Shown here: piece by piece, positions 2,509 through 59,388 of the stretch | How the letters are laid out: the number at the start of each line of letters is the position of its first letter | Numbering within the stretch: the stretch's first letter is position 1 | NCBI GenBank assembly: GCA_021788365.1 | Contig: JAJYKS010000003.1 | Span: forward strand, 6,283-70,282 | Direction: 5' to 3' | Origin: a bacterium | GTDB taxonomy: Bacteria > Patescibacteriota > Microgenomatia > UBA1400 > UBA12108 | Length of the DNA: 64,000 nt | Made by a program: the position numbers and the translations under genes | Notes under the pieces: generated by a model | Database searches by the model: none | Told to the model about the DNA's origin: nothing | What the model saw: only the letters and a program-made list of their open reading frames with translations

Positions 2509-3918
2509 CTAGTCGGCGAGCCGGTTAGCCGGTTTGTCGGTTTTCCAGACGATGCGGAAATAGAGAAGCAATACGAATAATCCCTGGGGGGAGGTGAGGA
2601 AATAGTGGTCAAGAAGCAGAAGGGGGAGGAGGGGGAGCGCTTGCACAATTTCCGATTTCCAATTTCCAATTTTTAAAAGCTGGGCTACCGAGACTATTCC
2701 GGCAAAGCCAAACCAGGACAAGAAGAGGGTAAAAGCGTCATGGTCGGGCTGTAGGAGCCGGAGAGTAGGCGTGACGGCGGGGTAGGTAGAGATGCTGGCG
2801 CTTGCACCGGAGCCGAAGATCGGATATGAGCGAATAATTGAAAAGGAAGTATTTTGCAAACGCAGTCTATCAAAAACGGAAAGATCTAGAGATCGGGTGA
2901 GGGTACCAGAAGAGAGAAGAGAGAGTAAAGATACTAGGAGAACAAAGAAATACAGAATCCGAACGCGTAGAGACCGCAATAGACAACAGGGAATAACTAT
3001 TCCAAAGAGGGCGAAAGCGGCGGTGCGGGACTCTGTAAGAAAAACGCCGAGTGCGGCAAGGATAATCGCAAGGGTACCAACAAGGTCCAACCTCGTAGCC
3101 ATAAAGGCTACAAGATCGGACCTTCCGACGCTAGCGGTATTTGCCGACCTTGGTCGTTGCAGTCCGACCAACCTCACCGTTATCAAACTAGCTATTACAA
3201 GCCAACCAGCGAGCACGTTGGGGTGAGAGAACGTTCCATACGCGCGAAGCATCGTGTGACCAAAAAATGAGGCTGTGGCGACGGTAGGTGCCCCCACGGC
3301 AATGGCGCGTTCTCCAAACCAATAGAGAATTCCTTGGAGACTATGGCCGAGGGCCACTTGGATCGCACCAAGGGCTACCTGAAAGAGTGCGGAGGCGACG
3401 AGGATATAGGGAATGGTGGATAGAAAATTGGAGGACAGGGATAATATAAATACTGCGTACAGCAGGAGATGCAGCGACCAAGAAAGGGTGGCGAGTGGGT
3501 TTGCCGAGAAAAGGAGGTTGACAAGGAGAAGGGGTACAATAATTTCCAAGTTCCAATTTTCAATTTTCAGTGAATGTTCAAGTTTCAATTTTATAAAAAG
3601 ATATATGATAATCAGCAAGTCGAGCATGTAGAGCGTGGGGGAGAGGTAGTCGACGCGGATACCATATATCAGCGCCGAGTCCGGCCAAAAATGGCGGCCG
3701 AGTTCGGTAGCCGAGAAAAAGACTATGAGAAAACCCAAGCCTTGTTCAAGTGCGTGGCGCAATGAATACGCGGCGGTCGGGTCCTTCCCCTTGGGAGAAT
3801 GTCGTAAACTTGCCATTATCCTTGAACATAAGATGAATCTCGCGGCGTTCTGAGGCGGACAACGGAGGAAGAGCTCGGGGAGAGCCGGCGGCGGCAACTT
3901 CTCGCTGCACCCTGTCAA
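2509..3918 (-). CDS. Polytopic membrane protein (O-antigen ligase/polymerase-like); carries two in-frame heptamer-repeat insertions
   Basis: 469 aa and highly hydrophobic. The peptides ENWNLEI and GNWKSEI are encoded by AATTTCC/AATTTTC heptamer repeat copies at 2647-2675 and 3541-3594. Confidence 0.4.
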   Translation of the reverse strand: MTGCSEKLPPPALPELFLRCPPQNAARFILCSRIMASLRHSPKGKDPTAAYSLRHALEQGLGFLIVFFSATELGRHFWPDSALIYGIRVDYLSPTLYMLDLLIIIYLFIKLKLEHSLKIENWNLEIIVPLLLVNLLFSANPLATLSWSLHLLLYAVFILSLSSNFLSTIPYILVASALFQVALGAIQVALGHSLQGILYWFGERAIAVGAPTVATASFFGHTMLRAYGTFSHPNVLAGWLVIASLITVRLVGLQRPRSANTASVGRSDLVAFMATRLDLVGTLAIILAALGVFLTESRTAAFALFGIVIPCCLLRSLRVRILYFFVLLVSLLSLLSSGTLTRSLDLSVFDRLRLQNTSFSIIRSYPIFGSGASASISTYPAVTPTLRLLQPDHDAFTLFLSWFGFAGIVSVAQLLKIGNWKSEIVQALPLLPLLLLDHYFLTSPQGLFVLLLYFRIVWKTDKPANRLAD

Positions 3919-4210
3919 CCATACCTTTTAGCGTCTCCAGTCGGCGGCTGCGATATCCAGCAACGTCAACTACTACGTGGCGATGTTCGACTTGATCGCG
4001 ATTTAGCATCATGGACAGTAGCAGTTGCATGGCGTCAAGCGTTGCGGCAAAACGACCAATAAAACGACCCGCCTCGGATTCGGGGACGTCGATCACGACC
4101 GTAATCATCTCTTCTGTTTCAGAGACAATAATCCTGTCTTCAATAAGGCCGAAGAGGCCACAGAATTGTTTTATTACCTTAGTTTCATCGTTTGTAACCA
4201 CGAGCGCCAC
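3746..4210 (-). CDS. jag: Jag/KhpB R3H-domain RNA-binding protein
   Basis: 154 aa with KH-like and R3H-like C-terminal sequence. It sits immediately downstream of yidC in the conserved yidC-jag arrangement and overlaps the yidC 3' end. Confidence 0.65.
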   Translation of the reverse strand: MALVVTNDETKVIKQFCGLFGLIEDRIIVSETEEMITVVIDVPESEAGRFIGRFAATLDAMQLLLSMMLNRDQVEHRHVVVDVAGYRSRRLETLKGMVDRVQREVAAAGSPRALPPLSASERREIHLMFKDNGKFTTFSQGEGPDRRVFIAPRT

Positions 4211-4952
4211 CTTTCTTCATAATTTTGTTCCAATACAACGTGAGGCCACCTGGGCCTGAGACAACGAGCTGTTGCGCTAGTGAAAAGGCGGTTGTTATCA
4301 CCCAATAGACCGCAAGGCCCGAAGGGAATTGCAGTGCAAAGATTACCGTCATTAGAGGCATCATAAAAACCATTTGTTGCTGCATGGATTGCGCCATTTC
4401 GGCTATATCTTCCTTTTGAGCTTTTGTGCCTTCGCGCTTTTCTGGCTCGTTTTCCACTGCTGGCAGAAGCGCAACTGAGGCTAAGAGTTGGAGGACGCCG
4501 GCTAGGATGGGGAGGGAATATGTTGGATCTTTTACTTTTAAATCCCAGATAAGCCAGTGGGTATTGACTGCGACGCCGGCTAGGGCACCTTGGCCGAGCG
4601 AGTCGATAAAAACGCGGTACAGCGCGATCAATACGATAAATTGCACAATCATGGGAAGACAGCCAGAGGCGGGGTTGATGTTGTGATTCTTATAGAACTC
4701 GAGCTGTTTTTGTTGGAGAAGCTTTGTGTCGTGCCCGTGCTTTTTCTTTAGTGCGTCAAGTTCTGGCTTTAGGTCCGCCATTTTTTTGGCAGCCTTTATT
4801 GAGGGTAATACAAAGGGAATTAGGATGGCGCGAATTCCTACTGTGAGCACTATGATCGCAAGGCCAAGGTTGTTCCCAAGAATGTGGTAGAGCCATAACA
4901 AGCTCTGCAGTAGGGGGCTGTAGAAGAGGGCGTTCCAAAGATTTATCATATT
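4185..4952 (-). CDS. yidC: Membrane protein insertase YidC
   Basis: YidC/Oxa1 core (ASGCLPMIVQFIVLIALYRVF..., LPILAGVLQLL...) in the conserved rpmH-rnpA-yidD-yidC order. The ORF track starts at a TTG at 4961; the ATG at 4950-4952 (MINLWN) is the likelier start. Confidence 0.85.
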   Translation of the reverse strand, partial: NMINLWNALFYSPLLQSLLWLYHILGNNLGLAIIVLTVGIRAILIPFVLPSIKAAKKMADLKPELDALKKKHGHDTKLLQQKQLEFYKNHNINPASGCLPMIVQFIVLIALYRVFIDSLGQGALAGVAVNTHWLIWDLKVKDPTYSLPILAGVLQLLASVALLPAVENEPEKREGTKAQKEDIAEMAQSMQQQMVFMMPLMTVIFALQFPSGLAVYWVITTAFSLAQQLVVSGPGGLTLYWNKIMKKGGARGYKR

Positions 4953-4984
4953 AATTTTCAATTTTCAGTTTACAATTTTCAAAT

Positions 4985-5239
4985 TCAGGGGACGGGGTCA
5001 TAGCCCCCGGCACTCCATGGGTGACATTTTAGCAGGCGGAGCACAGATAACCAAGCGCCCTTTATGAGTCCGTGCTTTGTAAGGGCAGTTTTGGCGTAGA
5101 GCGAACACGTGGGGGTATAGCGGCAACTTCCGTGTGCAAGACCAAGATTAGTTGCAACGGCTTTAAGATAGGGGGAGGTTTTCCGCCAAAGGTAATAGGG
5201 GGCGGAAATAATTTTTAATTTATAATTTTTAATTTTCAT
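4985..5239 (-). CDS. yidD: Membrane protein insertion efficiency factor YidD
   Basis: 84 aa with [11 protein letters not shown]...GGYDPVP, the hallmark YidD motifs. Confidence 0.8.
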
Positions 5240-5258
5240 TCAAATCTCAATTCACAAG

Positions 5259-5576
5259 TTACAAACTTTTTAGTTCTAAAATGATTTGAGTGTTGGCTGT
5301 ACGAGATTTTTTGAGAGCAATTGGTTTGTAGACCACAACACAGTCAAGATTTTTATCTTTAATTAGCGGCCAAAGGGTGTCGTAGGTTATGCGCCTTAGC
5401 CAATTGCGGGTCGTTGCCAACTTGGAAAGCTTCCTTGAAACAATCACGGCGAGGCGAGAAGGGTTGGGAGACGGGGCATAGTAAAACGTAAAGTGCGGCG
5501 TCGTCGAGCGCTTGGCTTGAACACGAAAATTGATAAGTTTTGTGCGGAGCGGAAACTTCCTTGACCGAGGGATCAT
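5259..5576 (-). CDS. rnpA: RNase P protein component
   Basis: 105 aa, basic. The RLAVIVSRKLSKLATTRNWLRR motif and its position after rpmH fit rnpA. Confidence 0.8.
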   Translation of the reverse strand: MIPRSRKFPLRTKLINFRVQAKRSTTPHFTFYYAPSPNPSRLAVIVSRKLSKLATTRNWLRRITYDTLWPLIKDKNLDCVVVYKPIALKKSRTANTQIILELKSL

Positions 5577-5851: not shown

Positions 5852-7222
5852 ATGCGAATGGATATTATTTCTACATGGAAAGCAGTACAGGCAGACCTCG
5901 AGCTCTCCATTTCCCCCGTCCACTATTCCACGTGGATCCGCCCACTTTCGCTCACCTCCCTTGAGACAATGTCAGACGGCAGTCATCTTGCCTCCGTTCT
6001 CACCCCCTCCGCATACCATCAACAGATTGTTACTCAACGATACCTTGGACAGCTTGAGCGGAGTTTGGGGCGGGTTTTAGGCGGAAAGACAACGTTGTCT
6101 GTACTTGTTGGTCGGGATGCAACGGAGTCCGTTTCCAGTAAACACCTCAAGCAGCAGGCTGCCCCCTCGCTTTTTTCACCCAATACACTTGCGCCACCCA
6201 CTCCAACAGGCTCTCATAATCTAAACCCTAAATATACCTTTGACACCTATATCGTAGGTGCATCTAACAACTTTGCGCATGCTGCGGCAGTGGGTGTGGC
6301 AAAGACTCCTGGTACGCGCTATAACCCGCTTTTTATCTATGGTGGTGTGGGGCTTGGTAAAACCCACCTTATGCATGCCATCGGCCACGCGATTTTTTCT
6401 GACCACCCCGATTGGGACATTATGTATATTTCGGCCGAAACTTTTGGGAGTGATCTTATCGCTAGCTTACAGAACAAGCGAACGGCACAGTTTAAGAAAA
6501 AATATCGCTCACCAAATGTTCTTCTTGTGGATGACGTGCAGTTTATCGCTGGGAAAGAATATATCCAAGAAGAATTTTTCCACACCTTTAATGAACTCTA
6601 TTTGTCCGGGCGACAAATTGTTATGACTAGCGATCGCCCGCCGCAAGAAATTTCGAGGATTGAAGAGCGTCTATCGTCACGATTCATGGGCGGGCTTACT
6701 GTCGACATCCAGCTTCCTGATTTTGAGACACGAGTGGCCATACTCACCCAGAAATGTCAATCTCTGGGCGTACCGGTCCCCGCGGAGGCCCTTTCCCTCA
6801 TCGCCGAACGGTCGCCAACCAATATCCGAGAGCTTGAGGGAGTTCTCCAGACGATCCTTTCCAAGGCTGCTCCAGGCACCGATCTGACTAGCAATGTCGT
6901 TCGCGAGTACTTTGGCACTGAACACGAGCGGCGGAGCCAACGGGTGCGTCCCAATGCCGTCATCGCCAAGACTGCACAATATTTTGACTTTAAACCATCT
7001 GAGCTCACCGGTAGCAGTAGAAAAGCGCCCTTAGTTGCAGCTCGGCATGTCGCCATGTATCTTCTCTACGTTGATTTTGACTTACCCTATGAACAAATAG
7101 GCGATCTTTTTGGGGGGCGCGACCATACAACCGTTATGCATGCCGTCGAGAAGGTGGCGGGGGAGCTCAAAACCCAAGCTGAGATTGCCAAGATAATTGC
7201 CGATATTAAACATGGGCTGTAA
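5852..7222 (+). CDS. dnaA: Chromosomal replication initiator DnaA
   Basis: 456 aa with the AAA+ Walker A GGVGLGKTHL, sensor motifs, and a C-terminal DNA-binding domain (VAMYLLYVDFDLPYEQIGDLFGGRDHTTVMHA). Confidence 0.95.
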   Translation: MRMDIISTWKAVQADLELSISPVHYSTWIRPLSLTSLETMSDGSHLASVLTPSAYHQQIVTQRYLGQLERSLGRVLGGKTTLSVLVGRDATESVSSKHLKQQAAPSLFSPNTLAPPTPTGSHNLNPKYTFDTYIVGASNNFAHAAAVGVAKTPGTRYNPLFIYGGVGLGKTHLMHAIGHAIFSDHPDWDIMYISAETFGSDLIASLQNKRTAQFKKKYRSPNVLLVDDVQFIAGKEYIQEEFFHTFNELYLSGRQIVMTSDRPPQEISRIEERLSSRFMGGLTVDIQLPDFETRVAILTQKCQSLGVPVPAEALSLIAERSPTNIRELEGVLQTILSKAAPGTDLTSNVVREYFGTEHERRSQRVRPNAVIAKTAQYFDFKPSELTGSSRKAPLVAARHVAMYLLYVDFDLPYEQIGDLFGGRDHTTVMHAVEKVAGELKTQAEIAKIIADIKHGL

Positions 7223-10544: not shown

Positions 10545-10672
10545 CCTATCAGTATACCAGCTAGTCGGCGAGTCGGCGGGCCGGCATGTCGGCTTGTCAG
10601 CGAGGCCGGAAAACCGATGCACCGATTTAACTGATTGGCTGACTAGCTGATTTGCTGATTTGCCGACTATCT
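10545..10672. repeat. Octamer-periodic (NNGTCGGC)n / (GCTGATTT)n intergenic element, one of at least five copies
   Basis: TAGTCGGC GAGTCGGC GGGCCGGC ATGTCGGC TTGTCAGC ... GCTGATTT GCTGATTT GCCGACTA. It is flanked on the gene side by CAGTATAcc (TATACT -10 on the coding strand) 8 nt before the VirB4 ATG. Confidence 0.5.
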
Positions 10673-25535: not shown

Positions 25536-25913
25536 TCAACCCGCTGTTGGCCACTTAACGTTTAATAGGTCGATCCCGAGTGCTGCTTGGAGGAATTTGA
25601 TAATGACATATGAGGCAACGAGAATGGCGAGACCAATCAGGCCCTGTGTGATGTGGTTCTTTGCGTCTTCTAATTTACTCTTTTCGCCGCCAGAGAGGAT
25701 CCAGTTTACCGCCCCCCAGAGGAAGTACATCATGAATGCGAGACCACCGACAATAATGATTGTTTGCCATAGGGTACCAACGGTTACGGCAAATTGTTTC
25801 CCCTGATCTCCGCCACCCCCACCCGGAACGGCGACGTTGGTTATTGTGGCATGAGCGACTGTAGGAGATAGGAGGTAGGAGATGGGAGATAGGAAGGCAA
25901 TGAGTTTTTTCAT
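25536..25913 (-). CDS. VirB2/TrbC-like T4SS pilin paralogue 4
   Basis: 125 aa with a signal peptide and GAVNWILSGGEKSKLEDAKNHITQGLIGLAILVASY. A TAAtATG junction couples it to the upstream gene. Confidence 0.7.
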   Translation of the reverse strand: MKKLIAFLSPISYLLSPTVAHATITNVAVPGGGGGDQGKQFAVTVGTLWQTIIIVGGLAFMMYFLWGAVNWILSGGEKSKLEDAKNHITQGLIGLAILVASYVIIKFLQAALGIDLLNVKWPTAG

Positions 25914-39101: not shown

Positions 39102-39127
39102 AATCCCGCAAAAGCGGGATTTTGCTG
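39102..39127. terminator. Bidirectional rho-independent terminator shared by smpB and the convergent candidate tmRNA
   Basis: AAAATCCCGC-AAAA-GCGGGATTTT is a perfect 10-bp-stem hairpin with T-runs on both strands. Confidence 0.7.
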
Positions 39128-39529
39128 TGGAGACGGAGGGCAGTGAGCCCTCGTCCGCGTGCTGCTACTAACATCATCTACATACGTAGTTCATTTTATT
39201 TTTAACCTCATGCTGTCCCGGGAATGAACGAACCAAAATAGCAAGAGGGTTGTCGATTGATTTGGGCCAGAGTGACAAGACCTGGCTTACGGCCTGTGTC
39301 TGTTTCCACCCAACTACCGCGCCACAAGCGACTTGGTAGTGAATGCCGTTAGGCAAATGCCGGTACGAAACCAGCGTTGTCTGCGGGAGTAAAGAGACCT
39401 ACAAAGAAGTCTTTTACTGCAGTCAAAGGATTTTTGACAGTTATTTTTTGGCTCTTTTTTACGACTTCCTTAGCCAAAGTCGGTATGCAGATGTTAATGA
39501 GCGAGTACACGTCAATACAAGACGTCCCC
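39128..39529 (-). ncRNA. ssrA: Candidate tmRNA (SsrA), about 402 nt, CCA not encoded
   Basis: Minus-strand 5' GGGGACG pairs with 3' CGUCUCC, including G3:U70 (the Ala identity element), followed by discriminator A. The 3' tRNA-like domain GGAC-GAGGG-CUCACUG-CCCUC-CGUCUCCA parallels E. coli GGAC-GCGGG-UUCAACU-CCCGC-CAGCUCCA. An internal frame GCA GAC AAC GCT GGT TTC GTA CCG GCA TTT GCC TAA encodes the tag ADNAGFVPAFA* (39349-39384). The upstream promoter is TGGTACCAT. Confidence 0.55.
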
Positions 39530-39597
39530 AATGCACGAATGGTACCATACATCAGGCAATTTGTCCAGTTCCTACGATCTGTACTATGCTATAGACA

Positions 39598-40286
39598 TGA
39601 GCTTTGTTGATTGGATATATCCGAAGGTATGCGCGGGATGTGAAAAGGAGGGGGAGTATATATGCGATGAATGTCGGGGGAAACTAAACCCACCAGTGTC
39701 GATTTGTCCGGAGTGCAACCGACCGAGTATAGACGGATGGGTACATGCACGTTGTCAAAGGCGGTATGGAATAGACAGGCTTATCGTGGGATTACCGTAC
39801 CACGGGGCGGTGCAGAAGTGCCTCAAAAACGTCAAATATAAGAGCAGCTGGGAAGTGATCAACTTTTTGCATGAAGTTTGGGAACAAAAAGCCGAATTCA
39901 TGATTCATGATTTACGATCCATGAATATAAATGCCTTGGTTACGGCGGTACCGATGTGGGGAATGAAAGAACGGAAACGGGGATTCAATCAAGCCGAGCG
40001 ACTGGGGAAATTAATAGCGAGCGAGATGGGGCTTCCGTATTTGGACGTTTTGGAAAGGGTGAGAGATACCAGGGCGATGTGGGGACTCGACCACAAACAA
40101 AGGATACAGAATGTGGTAGGGGCGTTTTCGCTTAATTCTCAGTTTTCAGTTCTCAATTTCCAAAAAATAAAACTGGTTTTGTTGGTGGATGATGTGTGGA
40201 CGACGGGGGCTACAATGCGGATGTGCGCGGGTGTTTTGATACGGGGTGGTGCTAAAAAAGTTTGGGGAATCGCATTATCGCGGTAA
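39598..40286 (+). CDS. comFC: ComF-like competence protein (phosphoribosyltransferase domain); contains an in-frame heptamer-repeat insertion
   Basis: N-terminal CAGC...CDEC...CPEC zinc-finger-like Cys pairs and a C-terminal PRTase motif LVDDVWTTGAT. The peptide NSQFSVLNFQK (40134-40168) is encoded by the heptamer element. Confidence 0.65.
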
Positions 40287-53714: not shown

Positions 53715-54421
53715 ACGGGGCTAGCGGGGCGGCAATACTGTCCGTTTCCCACCTGACTGTCGCTGTTGCTGACCGAGAGGCGTTTCGCGATATCTCGTTC
53801 ACCCTTGATCGGGGTGGTGTGTATGCCCTCATGGGTCCGAATGGTGGGGGGAAAACAAGCTTAGCAATGTTTTTAATGGGGAGCACGCAGTACTTAGTGC
53901 ACCCTAAGCGTGGGACAGAGGTACTTTTTGACGGGAAAGATTTACTTGCAATGAAACCAAACGAGCGTGCAAAGGTGGGACTCTATGTCTCTTGGCAGCA
54001 GCCGATTGCTATACCTGGCGTGTCAGTTTTTTCGCTTGCTAAGGCTAGTTATGAGAATGTTGTGGGGGCCATTGATAGCGTGGTGGCCTTTAAAACGAGG
54101 GTGGAGGAACTCCTAACACGTGTCGGACTACCTGCGACGTATGTATCCCGGAGTGTAAATGATGGATTCTCGGGTGGAGAACGCAAGCGACTCGAGCTTT
54201 TTCAGCTTCTTCTCTTGCAGCCAAAGCTTGCTATTCTTGATGAGCTCGATTCTGGGCTTGACCAGGCAGGGCGCGCACTCCTTACGAGCGTTGTTGCGGA
54301 GCTCTCCCGAGCTGGGACTACATTTCTCATAATAAGCCACTACAACGAGCTGCTTCGCAATCTATCAATTAGCAACACCTGGGAACTCGAAGATGGACAG
54401 TTACACGCTCGGCTTTCATAG
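53711..54421 (+). CDS. sufC: Fe-S cluster assembly ATPase SufC
   Basis: Walker A GPNGGGKTSL, the ABC signature FSGGERKRLE, and Walker B ILDELDSGLD. Confidence 0.85.
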   Translation: MNGASGAAILSVSHLTVAVADREAFRDISFTLDRGGVYALMGPNGGGKTSLAMFLMGSTQYLVHPKRGTEVLFDGKDLLAMKPNERAKVGLYVSWQQPIAIPGVSVFSLAKASYENVVGAIDSVVAFKTRVEELLTRVGLPATYVSRSVNDGFSGGERKRLELFQLLLLQPKLAILDELDSGLDQAGRALLTSVVAELSRAGTTFLIISHYNELLRNLSISNTWELEDGQLHARLS

Positions 54422-55772
54422 CGATACGGGGGATTATCGATATCGCGCACCGAAGGGTTTGTCGGAATCTCTAGTTCGCGAGCTGTCCCGCCAAAAGAAC
54501 GAGCCACCATGGATGCTTGATATACGACTTGCGGCGCTTGCCCAGTTTTACGAGATGGCGATACCTACTTGGGGAGCTAACCTCTCCGACATACGTTGGG
54601 ACGATATCCACTATTACCTGAAACCTGTCGAGCGGCCCTATAAAAATTGGAAAGAAGTGCCCGACGAGGTACGCAAAGTATTTGATGCGATCGGCGTGCC
54701 GGAAGCAGAGCGAGAACAGCTCGCAGGCGTGGGAGGACAATACGATAGCGAGGTTATCTATCATAGTTTACATAAAACCCTTTCTAAGAAGGGTGTTGTG
54801 TTTCTATCTATGGATGAGGGACTGAAGCAGTATCCCGAGATCGTGCGGAAGTACTTTGGTACGATCGTGCCATACGGCGACAATAAACTGGCAGCCCTCA
54901 ATACGGCAGTATGGAGCGGCGGCAGCTTTGTGTACGTGCCAAGTGGTGTGGATGTACAGCTGCCCTTGCAAGCATATTTTCGTATAAACTCGGAGAACGC
55001 GGGGCAGTTTGAGCGAACACTCATTGTTGCTGAAAAGGGGGCACGCGTACACTACGTGGAAGGGTGCTCCGCCCCCGCTTTTAGCAGTGCGAGCTTGCAC
55101 GCGGCTGTTGTGGAAGTGATTGTCGAAAATGGTGCGAAGGTGCGCTACACCACTGTGCAGAATTGGTACAAGAACGTTTATAACCTTGTTACCAAACGGG
55201 CGACGGTTGCTGCGGACGGGGTGATGGAATGGGTGGATTGCAATCTAGGGAGCAAAATAACCATGAAGTATCCGTCGTGCATCCTCCGGGGAGAGCGGGC
55301 ACGTGGGGAGATGCTGTCTATTGCTGTTGCTGGGGAGGGACAGCACCAGGACGCAGGGGCAAAGATGCATCACCTAGCACCTCACACTACCAGTAGAATC
55401 ATCTCGAAATCTATTTCTAAGGGTGGGGGGCGTAGCTCATATAGAGGAATGGTAACAATGGCTCCAACGGCGATAGGCGCCAAGAGCAAGGTGGTGTGTG
55501 ACGCACTTATTCTTGACCCTGCAAGCCGTAGCGATACGTATCCCACGAATCGGATACTGACGGGTGCGGCAACCGTGGAACACGAAGCGACGGTGTCGAA
55601 GATTGGCGAGGAACAGCTTCTCTACCTTATGTCACGAGGCATGACACAAGTGGAAGCGGAGGGGATGATCGTCCGCGGGTTTCTGGAGCCGGTCGTGGCC
55701 GAGCTGCCCTTAGAATATGCAGTGGAACTTAACCGGCTCGTGAATATGGAAATGGAAGGGAGTGTGGGATGA
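54393..55772 (+). CDS. sufB: Fe-S cluster assembly scaffold SufB
   Basis: The C-terminus EEQLLYLMSRGMTQVEAEGMIVRGFLEPVVAELPLEYAVELNRLVNMEMEGSVG closely matches the canonical SufB end. Confidence 0.8.
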   Translation: MDSYTLGFHSDTGDYRYRAPKGLSESLVRELSRQKNEPPWMLDIRLAALAQFYEMAIPTWGANLSDIRWDDIHYYLKPVERPYKNWKEVPDEVRKVFDAIGVPEAEREQLAGVGGQYDSEVIYHSLHKTLSKKGVVFLSMDEGLKQYPEIVRKYFGTIVPYGDNKLAALNTAVWSGGSFVYVPSGVDVQLPLQAYFRINSENAGQFERTLIVAEKGARVHYVEGCSAPAFSSASLHAAVVEVIVENGAKVRYTTVQNWYKNVYNLVTKRATVAADGVMEWVDCNLGSKITMKYPSCILRGERARGEMLSIAVAGEGQHQDAGAKMHHLAPHTTSRIISKSISKGGGRSSYRGMVTMAPTAIGAKSKVVCDALILDPASRSDTYPTNRILTGAATVEHEATVSKIGEEQLLYLMSRGMTQVEAEGMIVRGFLEPVVAELPLEYAVELNRLVNMEMEGSVG

Positions 55773-57684: not shown

Positions 57685-58050
57685 ATGGATATCTACCGCG
57701 AAGAAGTACTCGACCACTACAAAACTCCGCGAAATCAGGGGAAGCTTGTGGGGGATGATGTGCTCACTGCGAGTGGGGCAAATTCATCTTGTGGGGATAG
57801 CATTAAAGTTTACTTAAGAGTGACAGAGGGAAAAATAGACGAGGTGCGGTGGGAGGGGAGTGGGTGCGCGATAAGTACCGCGGCAGCGTCAAAGCTGTCG
57901 CAGTATTTGCAGGGAAAAACAGTGAAAGCGCTCACGAAAATGAGCGAAGACGAGCTGACGAGAGAGGCAATCGGCCTGAAAGTAAACCCAGGAAGGCTCA
58001 AGTGTTTGATGCTACCGGCGACGGTTGTACGGAAGCTTTTGGGAAATTGA
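57685..58050 (+). CDS. sufU: SufU/IscU-like sulfur acceptor
   Basis: YKTPRNQGKL...SCGDSIKVYL...GSGCAISTAAAS carries the three conserved Cys. Confidence 0.8.
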   Translation: MDIYREEVLDHYKTPRNQGKLVGDDVLTASGANSSCGDSIKVYLRVTEGKIDEVRWEGSGCAISTAAASKLSQYLQGKTVKALTKMSEDELTREAIGLKVNPGRLKCLMLPATVVRKLLGN

Positions 58051-59104
58051 GGTTGGGAAGGCGATCGATGGTGGCGGGGTTGGCAAAATCACCGCGGAGA
58101 TATTGATGGTAGGCTGCGACACCAATCATGGCAGCGTTGTCGGTGAAGAGTTTTTTGGTATAGGGGATGAATGTCGGTATCCCACATTCTTTGGCGACCG
58201 CGCGAGTGAGGGTGCGGAGCGCAACGTTGCTGACGACACCACCGCCTAGGAGAATCATTTCGGGTGAGTAGAGGTCTATCGCTCGGCGGAAGCGCTTCAT
58301 AAGATGTTTGAATACAGCTACCTGGAAGCTCGCTGCGAAGTCGGCGACGAACTCCTTAGTTAACTCTGGCTTTTCCCGTTCTAGGAAGTAGCGCACTTGG
58401 GTTTTTAAGCCGGAGAAACTAAAGTTTAGATCTTTCCGCGTCGTCATGGGTTCGGGGAGGTGATATTTTGGCGTGCCGACTTTGGCGAGCTCTGCCACGA
58501 TGGGGCCACCGGGATAGCCAAGCTGCAGCATGCGCCCGACTTTGTCATAGGCCTCACCGGCGGCGTCGTCCAGCGTCTCACCTATAAGTTCGTAATCACC
58601 GATACCTCGCATTAAAACGAGCTCTGTGTGACCGCCGGAAATGAGAAATCCTAAAGCAGGATAGGTTGCATACCTGGTACGTGATCTGGTGATTTTGGTG
58701 TTAGGAGTTGCAAAACTACTTAACAGATGGCCCTCCATGTGGTTGGCGGCGATAAGGGGGAGCGACCATTTCTCTGCCAATTCTTTAGCATACGCGATAC
58801 CCTGCTCTAGAGAGGGGGCGAGGCCGGGACCAACCGTTACTGCTATCGCAGTAACGCAATTTTCATTTTTCAGTTTACAATTTTCAAATTTGAACCCTGC
58901 TTTTCGCATGGCGAGGTCGACAACTTTTGGCAACCACTCGTGGTGCAAACGACGTGCGATGTCGGGGACGGTGCCACCCCACTCGGCATGATAGCGGGTT
59001 TGGGAGGAGACGACACTGCTTATGACGCGCGTGCCACGGGTGACGGCGGCGCACGTGTCGTCGAGACTCGTCTCGATAGATAAAATAGTTGGTTCTTTCG
59101 TCAT
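57998..59104 (-). CDS. tsaD: tRNA N6-adenosine threonylcarbamoyltransferase TsaD (Kae1/YgjD), with a 12-aa in-frame heptamer-repeat insertion
   Basis: ILSIETSLDDTCAAV, HMEGHLLSS, LISGGHTEL and GVVSNVALR motifs. The peptide KFENCKLKNENC (58858-58896) is encoded by the AATTTTC repeat and is absent from E. coli TsaD at that point. Confidence 0.85.
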   Translation of the reverse strand: MTKEPTILSIETSLDDTCAAVTRGTRVISSVVSSQTRYHAEWGGTVPDIARRLHHEWLPKVVDLAMRKAGFKFENCKLKNENCVTAIAVTVGPGLAPSLEQGIAYAKELAEKWSLPLIAANHMEGHLLSSFATPNTKITRSRTRYATYPALGFLISGGHTELVLMRGIGDYELIGETLDDAAGEAYDKVGRMLQLGYPGGPIVAELAKVGTPKYHLPEPMTTRKDLNFSFSGLKTQVRYFLEREKPELTKEFVADFAASFQVAVFKHLMKRFRRAIDLYSPEMILLGGGVVSNVALRTLTRAVAKECGIPTFIPYTKKLFTDNAAMIGVAAYHQYLRGDFANPATIDRLPNLNFPKASVQPSPVASNT

Positions 59105-59388
59105 AATCGCATATTATATCTGGATTTTTATTTTTAGTGCGGTCTCGGCCTCACTTGCCGAGTCCATTTTCTTGATTCTCGTCAAGAAAATGAACCAAAA
59201 GAAACGAGCTCGCAGGCTCGCTAAAATTATCAGGTTCATGGGTATGGACAAGATTTTCTGGTGACCGTCTCGCTCCACTCGACTTCGTCACCAGACGCAT
59301 TTGTCCATATTTAAAGTTGTATTCACCTGACAATTTTCTGACGCTCACGCTGCGAGATTGTATGGACGGCAGCTGGTACAATGTGCTC

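Follow-up and report, generated by a model that had tools for sequence, protein, structure and literature searches.

The stretch of DNA analysed here (hereafter the window; 64,000 nt, positions 6,283 to 70,282 of contig JAJYKS010000003.1 in assembly GCA_021788365.1) is the dnaA region of a Microgenomates bacterium of the Candidate Phyla Radiation (CPR), with dnaA at 5852-7222, and it contained a dispersed family of short tandem arrays of the heptamer AATTTTC, found inside genes and in spacers. The records of its relatives carry the names Microgenomates or 'Candidatus' CPR bacteria; loci and proteins from other assemblies are referred to below by L and P numbers. With a threshold of three or more consecutive units, none differing from AATTTTC by more than two mismatches, eight array segments were detected at six loci (2647-2674; 3541-3568 and 3573-3593; 4953-4980; 5210-5237 and 5242-5262; 40134-40161; 58858-58892), all on the + strand and none on the - strand. 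The arrays consisted of three to six imperfect AATTTTC heptamers per locus, forming single arms of 28-53 nt, and four of the six copies lay within 2.6 kb adjoining dnaA. A preliminary description of the window had listed arrays of 3-6 heptamers at these six loci, and all of them were present.

The host genes and neighbours of the arrays were assigned with Pfam and agreed with those described previously, as did the in-frame peptides. Copy 1 (2647-2674, + strand; AATTTCC GATTTCC AATTTCC AATTTTT) and copy 2 (3541-3593, + strand; an array with the subterminal motif CAGTGAATG) were both located in the gene for a 469-aa Wzy_C-like, O-antigen-ligase-like membrane protein (2509-3918, - strand), where they encoded LLKIGNWKSEI at loop site 2 and KLKLEHSLKIENWNLEI at loop site 1, respectively. 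The two intergenic copies occupied the spacers between rnpA, yidD and yidC (all - strand) next to dnaA, as had been reported: copy 3 (4953-4986, + strand) lay in the yidD-yidC spacer, with its end 3 nt upstream of the probable ATG of yidC (- strand, 4949), and copy 4 (5210-5262, + strand) lay in the rnpA-yidD spacer and overlapped or abutted the yidD start, the - strand reading ...GAATGAAAATTAAAAATTATAAATTAAAAATT. Copy 5 (40134-40161, + strand), the most degenerate (AATTCTC AGTTTTC AGTTCTC AATTTCC), was read in its T-rich sense within a comF-like gene (39531-40286, + strand) as NSQFSVLNFQ. Copy 6 (58853-58894, with its T-rich strand on +) formed a 42-nt in-frame insert of six heptamers in tsaD (57998-59104, - strand), encoding FKFENCKLKNENCV at residues 71-84.

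Such arrays were far more frequent than expected by chance, as dinucleotide-preserving shuffles gave a mean of 0.62 arrays and a maximum of 2, and a separate motif search returned 19 matches (3.1 expected), a number reached by none of 100 shuffles. Tandem structure was enriched at period 7 (seven segments, none in shuffles), while periods 6 and 8-12 gave only 0 or 1. Copies 3 and 6 had an identical non-periodic string of 24 nt (TTTTCAGTTTACAATTTTCAAATT) in common; the copies thus represent variants of a single defined sequence, not microsatellites that arose independently, which bears out the proposal of a dispersed sequence family. Single AATTTTC heptamers outside the arrays showed no + strand excess in the window, so the shared orientation of the arrays was not an effect of composition. 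Both orientations had been described; they do occur relative to the host genes, though only because the comF-like gene lies on the other strand, and the arrays share one orientation at the DNA level. A replication signal was considered for this strand bias (6/6 in the window) and rejected, as the next copy outside (L001:2392-2429) was inverted, giving a non-significant 6/7. GC skew was positive almost throughout the window (1-64000), on both sides of dnaA (5852-7222), and the expected origin skew switch was therefore not located at dnaA within the window.

In TsaD, the 42 nt of copy 6 supplied the 14 aa FKFENCKLKNENCV in place of the ancestral 4-aa SPKL. Among 120 homologues with 70-86% identity, about 65% possessed the ancestral loop AG-(S/N)P-KL-D, and the alignment points clearly to a lineage-specific in-frame insertion, as had been suggested. 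In an AlphaFold model of the protein (mean predicted local distance difference test score, pLDDT, of 82), the insert was placed between helix 46-68 and strand 86-91, and pLDDT dipped locally to 70, compared to 94 and 87 in the neighbouring blocks. About one third of the homologues had other inserts at exactly the same site, belonging to several peptide families ((K)LENxxTG, ITDLRQL, LSRHKA, LCHRDTVSQ and LSPLTPGV...SRS) that were scattered over the TsaD tree and interleaved with insert-free sequences. Their lengths were quantised, with LSRHKAD preceding SPKL corresponding to +21 nt and ILENRNTG preceding KPKL to +24 nt.

At the DNA level, the TsaD inserts of other lineages were tandem octamers or palindromes recurring elsewhere in the same contig. 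The insert units of L003 (CAAAACTG/GAGAACTG) and L128 (ACTGGAAW) had further copies inside PGK, and that of L126 (ACCGTGTC/TGTCACNG) was accompanied by four more arrays in the locus; no other copies were seen elsewhere in the loci of L125 (ATACGGAT) and L127 (a pair of AACTCCGGGAGTT palindromes). The core of the insert in the window (GAAAATTGTAAAYTGARAAATGRAAATTGC) was nearly identical in L129, L130 and L131, whose tsaD genes were 66-69% identical to that of the window and only 38-48% identical at third codon positions, with 10/10 third codon positions conserved in the core. L003, the nearest relative by tsaD sequence (76%), nevertheless possessed an unrelated 8-mer insert. These sequence comparisons show that the insert tracks the repeat family of its own genome and departs from the phylogeny of the host gene. 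The PGK gene appeared as a second in-frame hot spot, with octamer arrays of the genome's own family at 12732-12768 in L003 and 8934-8960 in L128. The L127 insert (4149-4215) comprised two copies of a 13-nt palindrome (AACTCCGGGAGTT, AACTCCCGGAGTT) without a tandem array and encoded LSPLTPGVNITSNSRSLIFP; a different kind of short repeat thus occupies the same TsaD loop.

The other two host proteins gave less support to insertion: from the alignments, in-frame insertion is suggested weakly for the membrane protein and does not hold for ComF, whereas it holds firmly for TsaD. In 150 representatives of ComF, the stretch between GAF.L and the phosphoribosyltransferase motif LLVDDVWTTG was a variable linker of 12-18 residues, with 16 in the protein of the window, and a 42%-identical homologue likewise read NSQF at the array site. 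With a normal linker length and the same residues in a homologue, no insertion can be shown, and the claim of an inserted ComF peptide had to be abandoned. The 22 N-terminal residues of the listed comF-like open reading frame (ORF) were unmatched by homologues, and its true start is therefore probably further downstream; a gene for transfer-messenger RNA (Rfam RF00023, 97 bits; 39125-39529, - strand) ended 2 nt before the listed start. The comF-like gene contained a second heptamer array, of four (ATTCATG)n units, at 39896-39924, encoding EFMIHDLRSMNI in a region that was also variable among homologues.

In the Wzy_C-like protein, both array sites corresponded to hypervariable inter-helix loops, and most orthologues had repeat-like peptides in these loops (FENLRIYDLRF, LKIVNCKLEF, IPCTSSAQAREKCLQTL, LLRKSW..MFSR..ETRSDPQ), the same peptide family being found at either site, depending on the orthologue. 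The two insertions claimed for this protein were not clearly supported, the net gain being about 4 aa at site 1 and nil at site 2. The relative L212 encoded a Wzy-like protein with 63% identity, and its origin region was also compared. Its site-1 array was conserved with copy 2, but site 2 and the rnpA-yidD spacer held a different unit family (ATAAATC/ATGAATC), and its yidD-yidC spacer, orthologous to the site of copy 3, had no array. Array positions are therefore partly conserved while their sequences turn over in concert within a genome. Slippage or phase variation between strains, which had been raised earlier, found no support in a small sample, where no copy-number difference was detected at four arrays among near-identical strains: the TsaD and NTPase arrays were identical in two assemblies (L001 and L002), and both Wzy arrays in a 99%-identical protein (P0131) from other contigs.

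The distribution of the heptamers was further examined with a pattern scan of one genome per species, which returned at least 119 loci. Among the matches listed, the heptamers recurred across many CPR phyla as the longer conserved string AATTTTC AATTTAC AATTTTC AATTTTC AGTGAATTTTCAATG, which copy 2 of the window shared (AATTTTCAATTTTCAGTGAATG), and the T-rich array was often followed 30-70 nt later by a complementary array. These ORF-less hairpins folded far better than shuffles (z -3.3 to -4.9). Solo arrays were the majority state elsewhere (50 solo arrays versus 9 inverted pairs; 19 of the 68 lay within open frames), and this majority away from PF05635 genes (see below) agrees with the situation in the window. 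Rfam contained no family matching the arrays or the hairpins, and no rRNA gene was found in the window. Other unit types in relatives included the heptamers CTATTTA and ATAAATC and the octamers GAAAACTG, TGTCACNG and ATACGGAT. Arrays of five to eight AGTTTTC/AATTTTC units were also present in four Bacteroidales metagenome-assembled genomes of about 50% GC (L080, L055, L119 and L111).

A whole hairpin was inserted in frame at the same site of MnmA in L068 (Taylorbacteria) and L070 (Saccharibacteria), in the peptide context ATGHY.R / EFPISNFQF...IENSLKIENCKLKI / ..KDQSYFLW, with arms 92-94% identical in nucleotides between the two genomes and a surrounding gene only 31-75% identical. A KsgA-like protein (L057) and a UvrC-like protein (L101) were further in-frame hosts. 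Read along its A-rich strand, a perfect (GAAAATT)n array contains a TGA in each frame; copies inside ORFs therefore carry variant units (TGT AAA, TGC, TGG, TCA CTG), and the variants AATTTAC and CAGTGAA eliminate TGA. Recoding of TGA under genetic code 25 was ruled out, as the ORFs were intact under table 11 and the copies inside them avoid TGA. A profile of the element-encoded peptide was also compared with proteins; the 232 word-sharing candidates included no significant match, and even the MnmA proteins were not recovered. The comparison with Rickettsia palindromic elements (RPEs), proposed from the window alone, proved apt and was strengthened, since the same heptamers form complete palindromes and in-frame MnmA hairpins occur in two phyla.

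In several relatives, the arrays flanked a gene of the PF05635 family (23S_rRNA_IVP; NCBIfam TIGR02436, 'four helix bundle protein'), which encodes a protein of about 120 aa, known as S23p from intervening sequences in 23S rRNA. PF05635 ORFs were present in L130, L116, L108, L107, L126 and L131, and in the first set of loci six of seven such ORFs were flanked by arrays of 7- or 8-mers. A T-rich arm, the PF05635 gene and an A-rich arm followed each other in gene orientation in L130, L116 and L108, and the gene was enclosed by inverted octamer arms in L107 and L131; T-rich heptamer arrays were located directly 5' of the PF05635 ATG in relatives. L130, which had the same type of TsaD insert as the window, also had, directly upstream of tsaD, a PF05635 element that was complete and bore AATTTTC arms. 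In the window, the spacer upstream of tsaD is unusually long (~250 nt) and has two small inverted repeats (59162-59195 and 59243-59309), and neither a heptamer array nor a PF05635 remnant was found in it. The L126 gene (11564-12092), situated between nifU and a cysteine desulfurase gene, was flanked by two direct octamer arrays of about 33 nt, each followed by ATG, i.e. with the nifU start region duplicated, an arrangement that resembles insertion into, or recombination at, an array.

The association was verified in an independent sample of 80 metagenome loci chosen solely by PF05635 protein similarity (with the two closest proteins as query), 77 of which had enough flanking sequence for array counts. 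An array was found within 200 nt of the PF05635 gene in 63 of the 77 loci (82%) and on both sides in 33, with a density of 3.65 arrays per kb near the gene compared to 0.29 per kb elsewhere in the same loci. Polarity was constant, the T-rich arm lying 5' of the gene and the A-rich arm 3' of it, and the arm units co-varied between loci (AATTTTG with CAAAATT, GTTTTCC with GGAAAAC). The elements were 412-581 bp long, and their arms paired at -44 kcal/mol, compared to -28 kcal/mol for shuffled arms. PF05635 was the sole gene between the arms, and no transposase domain was detected. When 35 5' arms of loci selected solely for a PF05635 homologue were made into a profile, it retrieved exactly the six arrays of the window, all on the + strand (E 2.6e-7 to 3.4e-4), and nothing from 10 shuffled windows; copy 2 was the best match to this profile (E 2.6e-7). 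Moreover, ORF-less and ORF-bearing copies had the subterminal motif AATGAATCAATGA in common, and the PF05635 proteins with AATTTTC arms grouped together (36-54% identity), those with octamer arms being at most 22% identical to them.

The arrays are thus best read as halves of a larger inverted-repeat element associated with PF05635, which the preliminary description had not recognised. More precisely, the six arrays of the window are probably (with a probability of roughly 0.6) solo arms of a family of selfish elements that resemble the intervening sequences (IVSs) of rRNA genes, are associated with PF05635 and are common in CPR bacteria. This reading builds on what was observed here, namely that the arrays are related as a family, how the elements are organised in relatives, that an array was inserted in frame and that the inserts do not follow vertical descent; the window arrays themselves would descend from complete elements and would be translated without a function for the host. 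Several points weigh against it. An hmmsearch of ORFs of 70 aa or longer detected no PF05635 gene across the 64-kb window, nor was one found in the adjoining 5 kb; a partner arm was lacking for each of the six AATTTTC copies, and the similarity that suggests descent is one of AT-rich, low-complexity DNA. In 34 elements with array-defined boundaries, no general target-site duplication was found (longest common string of 5.06 compared to 4.84 in controls), a duplication of 10-12 nt being seen only in L116. PF05635 has no known nuclease or recombinase activity, and there is therefore no mobility mechanism to point to. A PF05635 cassette could also have inserted into pre-existing arrays. Finally, some octamer TsaD inserts corresponded exactly to what a local triplication of the ancestral AAACTGGA (K-L-D/E codons) would produce, as for KLENWKTG in P0069, which corresponds to (AAACTGGA)3; slippage therefore contributes at least in part.

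Carried to its end, this last observation would make the arrays ordinary heptanucleotide microsatellites of the short tandemly repeated repetitive sequence (STRR) type, generated in place by slippage from a short seed under a shared mutational bias, without any mobile element. Over-representation of heptameric simple sequence repeats is documented in bacteria and has been attributed to slippage (PMC4692102), and the triplicated TsaD inserts and the location of arrays in hypervariable loops and linkers would also be expected under this explanation. It is considered improbable, as it has to contend with the 24-nt non-periodic string shared by copies 3 and 6, with a 40-nt arm that retains the same variant-unit order and subterminal motif (CAGTGAAT) at 92-94% identity across phyla in genes that are themselves 31-75% identical, with inserts departing from the host-gene phylogeny, and with the strong association with a single gene family, PF05635. 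In addition, the arrays were imperfect and without copy-number variation among near-identical strains, and slippage by 7 nt within an essential ORF is a frameshift. About equally improbable is the view that arrays came first and the gene second, the arrays being an independent class of hairpins into whose loops PF05635 cassettes insert, as they do in rRNA helices, so that the window arrays would not descend from a PF05635 element at all. Arrays far outnumber PF05635 genes, the rRNA IVSs occupy loops of pre-existing helices (PMC4990558), and the L126 gene, with direct array copies on both sides and a duplicated host start region, looks like an insertion into an array. The polarity was nevertheless constant, the T-rich arm always being 5' of the PF05635 gene, the AATGAATCAATGA motif was common to copies with and without the ORF, and PF05635 proteins grouped by arm type (36-54% within the AATTTTC group, at most 22% between it and the octamer group); a co-inherited unit therefore fits better.

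A cis-acting function for the host, whether as an A-rich, unstructured translation leader or weak promoter upstream of start codons, as a binding array for nucleoid or origin proteins or as a DNA-uptake-type signal, with the coding copies as tolerated extras, appears less probable still. The positions of the copies invite such a view: the A-rich strand abuts the starts of yidC, yidD and an RNase H-like gene in the window and of tsaD and nifU in relatives, four of the six copies are found within 2.6 kb beside dnaA, all window copies are on one strand, and DNA-level conservation exceeds the coding requirement. But promoter-like matches showed no excess (7 compared to 4.1 ± 1.9 in shuffles), and a promoter or terminator function was rejected because consensus matches were no commoner in the arrays than in shuffles. 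In a relative, the orthologous spacer lacked the yidC array, and unit sequences differed at conserved positions; the strand bias fell to 6/7 once the next copy outside the window was counted, Rfam held no matching family, and a regulatory site would hardly be expected to come into place by insertion into an essential enzyme.

According to the reading of the arrays as solo arms of PF05635 elements, a full element of about 410-580 bp would comprise a T-rich array of imperfect heptamers, a PF05635/TIGR02436 gene of about 120 aa and a complementary A-rich array. ORF-less versions would be hairpins of 80-120 nt and single arms the commonest state, the window arrays representing ORF-less, half-deleted derivatives. 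Copies would persist at harmless places, i.e. in spacers, often abutting a start codon, and in surface loops of proteins, where they would have to be stop-free and a multiple of 3 nt in length; those within ORFs would then be translated, for example as ENCKLK(I/N)EN. Copies within a genome may evolve in concert while unit sequence and length (7 or 8 nt) turn over between lineages, so that the same permissive site would hold a different repeat in each lineage. Copying could occur through the PF05635 protein acting in trans or through recombination or gene conversion between arrays.

The window also contained repeats of other families. A complete intergenic hairpin of octamer arrays, (AGTCGGCG)n ... 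(CTGATTTG)n, was located at 10555-10672 between the gene for a VirB4/TraG-like ATPase and its neighbour. It folded at -59.4 kcal/mol on the + strand (z -6.35) and at -46.1 kcal/mol on the - strand, its arms being complementary only via G.U pairs or C-to-T changes. This hairpin, together with L068 and L070, suggested an RNA-specific structure with G.U pairs on one strand, which was rejected as a general claim, as pairing in 77 elements was similar in sense and antisense (-44.0 and -44.7 kcal/mol respectively; p = 0.26); a C-to-T bias on the G-rich strand accounts equally well for the asymmetry seen in the octamer hairpin. An (RTAAATC)n heptamer array (1262-1288, - strand) abutted the ATG of the RNase H-like gene (817-1260), in the short gap between this gene and a polysaccharide-biosynthesis gene, and L212 had the same unit family in its rnpA-yidD spacer and at Wzy site 2. 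Another heptamer array, (TCTCCTA)n (25861-25894, - strand), coded for a portion of the hydrophobic segment at the N-terminus (LSPISYLLSPT) of a 125-aa protein resembling type IV secretion system pilins (PF18895). The SufB protein of the window (54393-55772; 459 aa) had no intein, whereas SufB proteins of 831-839 aa with an intein (PF14890 and a faint LAGLIDADG match) were encoded in L004 (13384-15879), L005 (7084-9579) and L126 (13892-16411). The Logan contig L005 ended within a (CTATTTA)n array (1-41) that continued in the longer NCBI contig L004 (6300-6341); such arrays break short-read assemblies.

More speculatively, PF05635/S23p proteins and arrays of 7-8-nt repeats could together constitute a single class of selfish element, widespread but hitherto overlooked, uniting rRNA IVSs, STRRs, the GGGAATC pairs of Xanthomonas and the arrays of CPR bacteria. 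The protein would recognise its own unit and promote the copying or maintenance of the inverted arrays, and ORF-less derivatives would settle in frame in loops of essential proteins (TsaD, MnmA, KsgA-like, PGK) and be overwritten in concert in each genome. This wider proposal is advanced only tentatively. No description was found in the literature of PF05635 genes with arrays outside rRNA, of ORF-less derivatives or of in-frame copies in CPR bacteria, which is weak evidence as the coverage was incomplete. The link between arrays and PF05635 offers a concrete and testable origin for dispersed heptanucleotide repeats such as STRRs and the GGGAATC arrays of Xanthomonas, unexplained for 30 years, as well as a genomic context for the S23p/PF05635 family. 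In streamlined CPR genomes, essential enzymes that are highly conserved (TsaD, MnmA) have repeatedly taken up short repeat-derived peptides in one and the same loop, which is relevant to annotation, marker-gene phylogenetics, assembly (contig breaks in arrays, as in L005) and the origin of new peptide segments.

Among known systems, MITEs (miniature inverted-repeat transposable elements) and repetitive extragenic palindromes with their bacterial interspersed mosaic elements (REP/BIME) also comprise ORF-less inverted-repeat derivatives beside rarer gene-bearing copies, mostly in intergenic positions within operons. Inverted arms were likewise present in the relatives of the window; unlike MITEs, however, the elements showed neither a general target-site duplication nor a transposase or RAYT-like gene, and the associated gene encodes a four-helix-bundle protein without known catalysis. 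Phase-variable contingency repeats are perfect and vary in unit number between closely related strains, switching a reading frame or promoter, unlike the imperfect arrays found here.

The resemblance is closer to the cyanobacterial STRRs, known also from within the functional gene for RNase P RNA, and to the arrays of Xanthomonas and Nostoc. About 70 convergent pairs of GGGAATC arrays in Xanthomonas campestris, and related GGGGA(T/C)T arrays in Nostoc, have been described, of unknown function and with no reported link to a gene (PMC4692102). These systems share with the present arrays dispersed tandem 7-nt units, a unit that is specific to the lineage, as was also found here, and frequent convergent inverted pairs. 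They are G-rich, often long and perfect and mostly intergenic, with neither a gene-family link nor in-frame copies in proteins reported, whereas those of the window are AT-rich and imperfect, span just 3-6 units and keep their variant units in a conserved order.

RPEs are also short dispersed repeats that lie in frame in conserved or essential genes, are read through as peptides and occur in non-coding DNA. They differ in being palindromes of 100-150 bp without tandem substructure or an associated gene, and belong to an unrelated sequence family and host phylum; no such palindromic unit of the RPE families was found in the window, where copies are single arms, full palindromes within ORFs being observed only in other CPR genomes (MnmA in L068 and L070). 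Lineage-specific in-frame persistence was apparent for TsaD, and for MnmA in the same two genomes, but could not be shown for ComF. As an analogy, the comparison with RPEs holds for behaviour and not for membership.

The closest counterpart is the S23p-type IVS of Coxiella burnetii, Leptospira and CPR rRNA genes. The Coxiella 23S IVS is described as a selfish element of 428 nt whose S23p ORF occupies the loop of a stem cleaved by RNase III, with two to three tandem GACAGAT heptamers, variable in number between strains, immediately preceding that ORF; where the IVS came from and how it moves are unexplained (PMC4990558). PF05635 ORFs have also been recorded inside insertions in CPR rRNA genes, where they were called functionally uncharacterised (PMC11270868). 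Shared traits are a length of ~430-580 bp, a PF05635/TIGR02436 gene in the loop of a long stem whose two sides are terminal inverted repeats, tandem heptamers directly before the ORF, a sporadic, horizontal-looking distribution, and an unknown function and mobility mechanism. The PF05635/TIGR02436 ORF was missing from the window but was found in six relatives and in the 80 metagenome loci; the inverted-repeat stem was not formed by the six window arrays but by the elements of relatives and by the octamer hairpin at 10555-10672; and heptamers adjoined the S23p start in relatives, the window arrays matching the profile of those arms. In contrast to the IVSs, the elements described here lie in spacers and protein-coding genes rather than in an rRNA helix, a location shared by none of the window copies, their arms are whole heptamer or octamer arrays, and ORF-less hairpins and solo arms far outnumber the ORF-bearing copies; excision by RNase III, moreover, would be destructive inside an mRNA. 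The arrays of the window are thus best read as joining known kinds of repeat, namely rRNA IVSs, STRR-type heptamer repeats and RPE-like in-frame repeats, in a link that can be tested.

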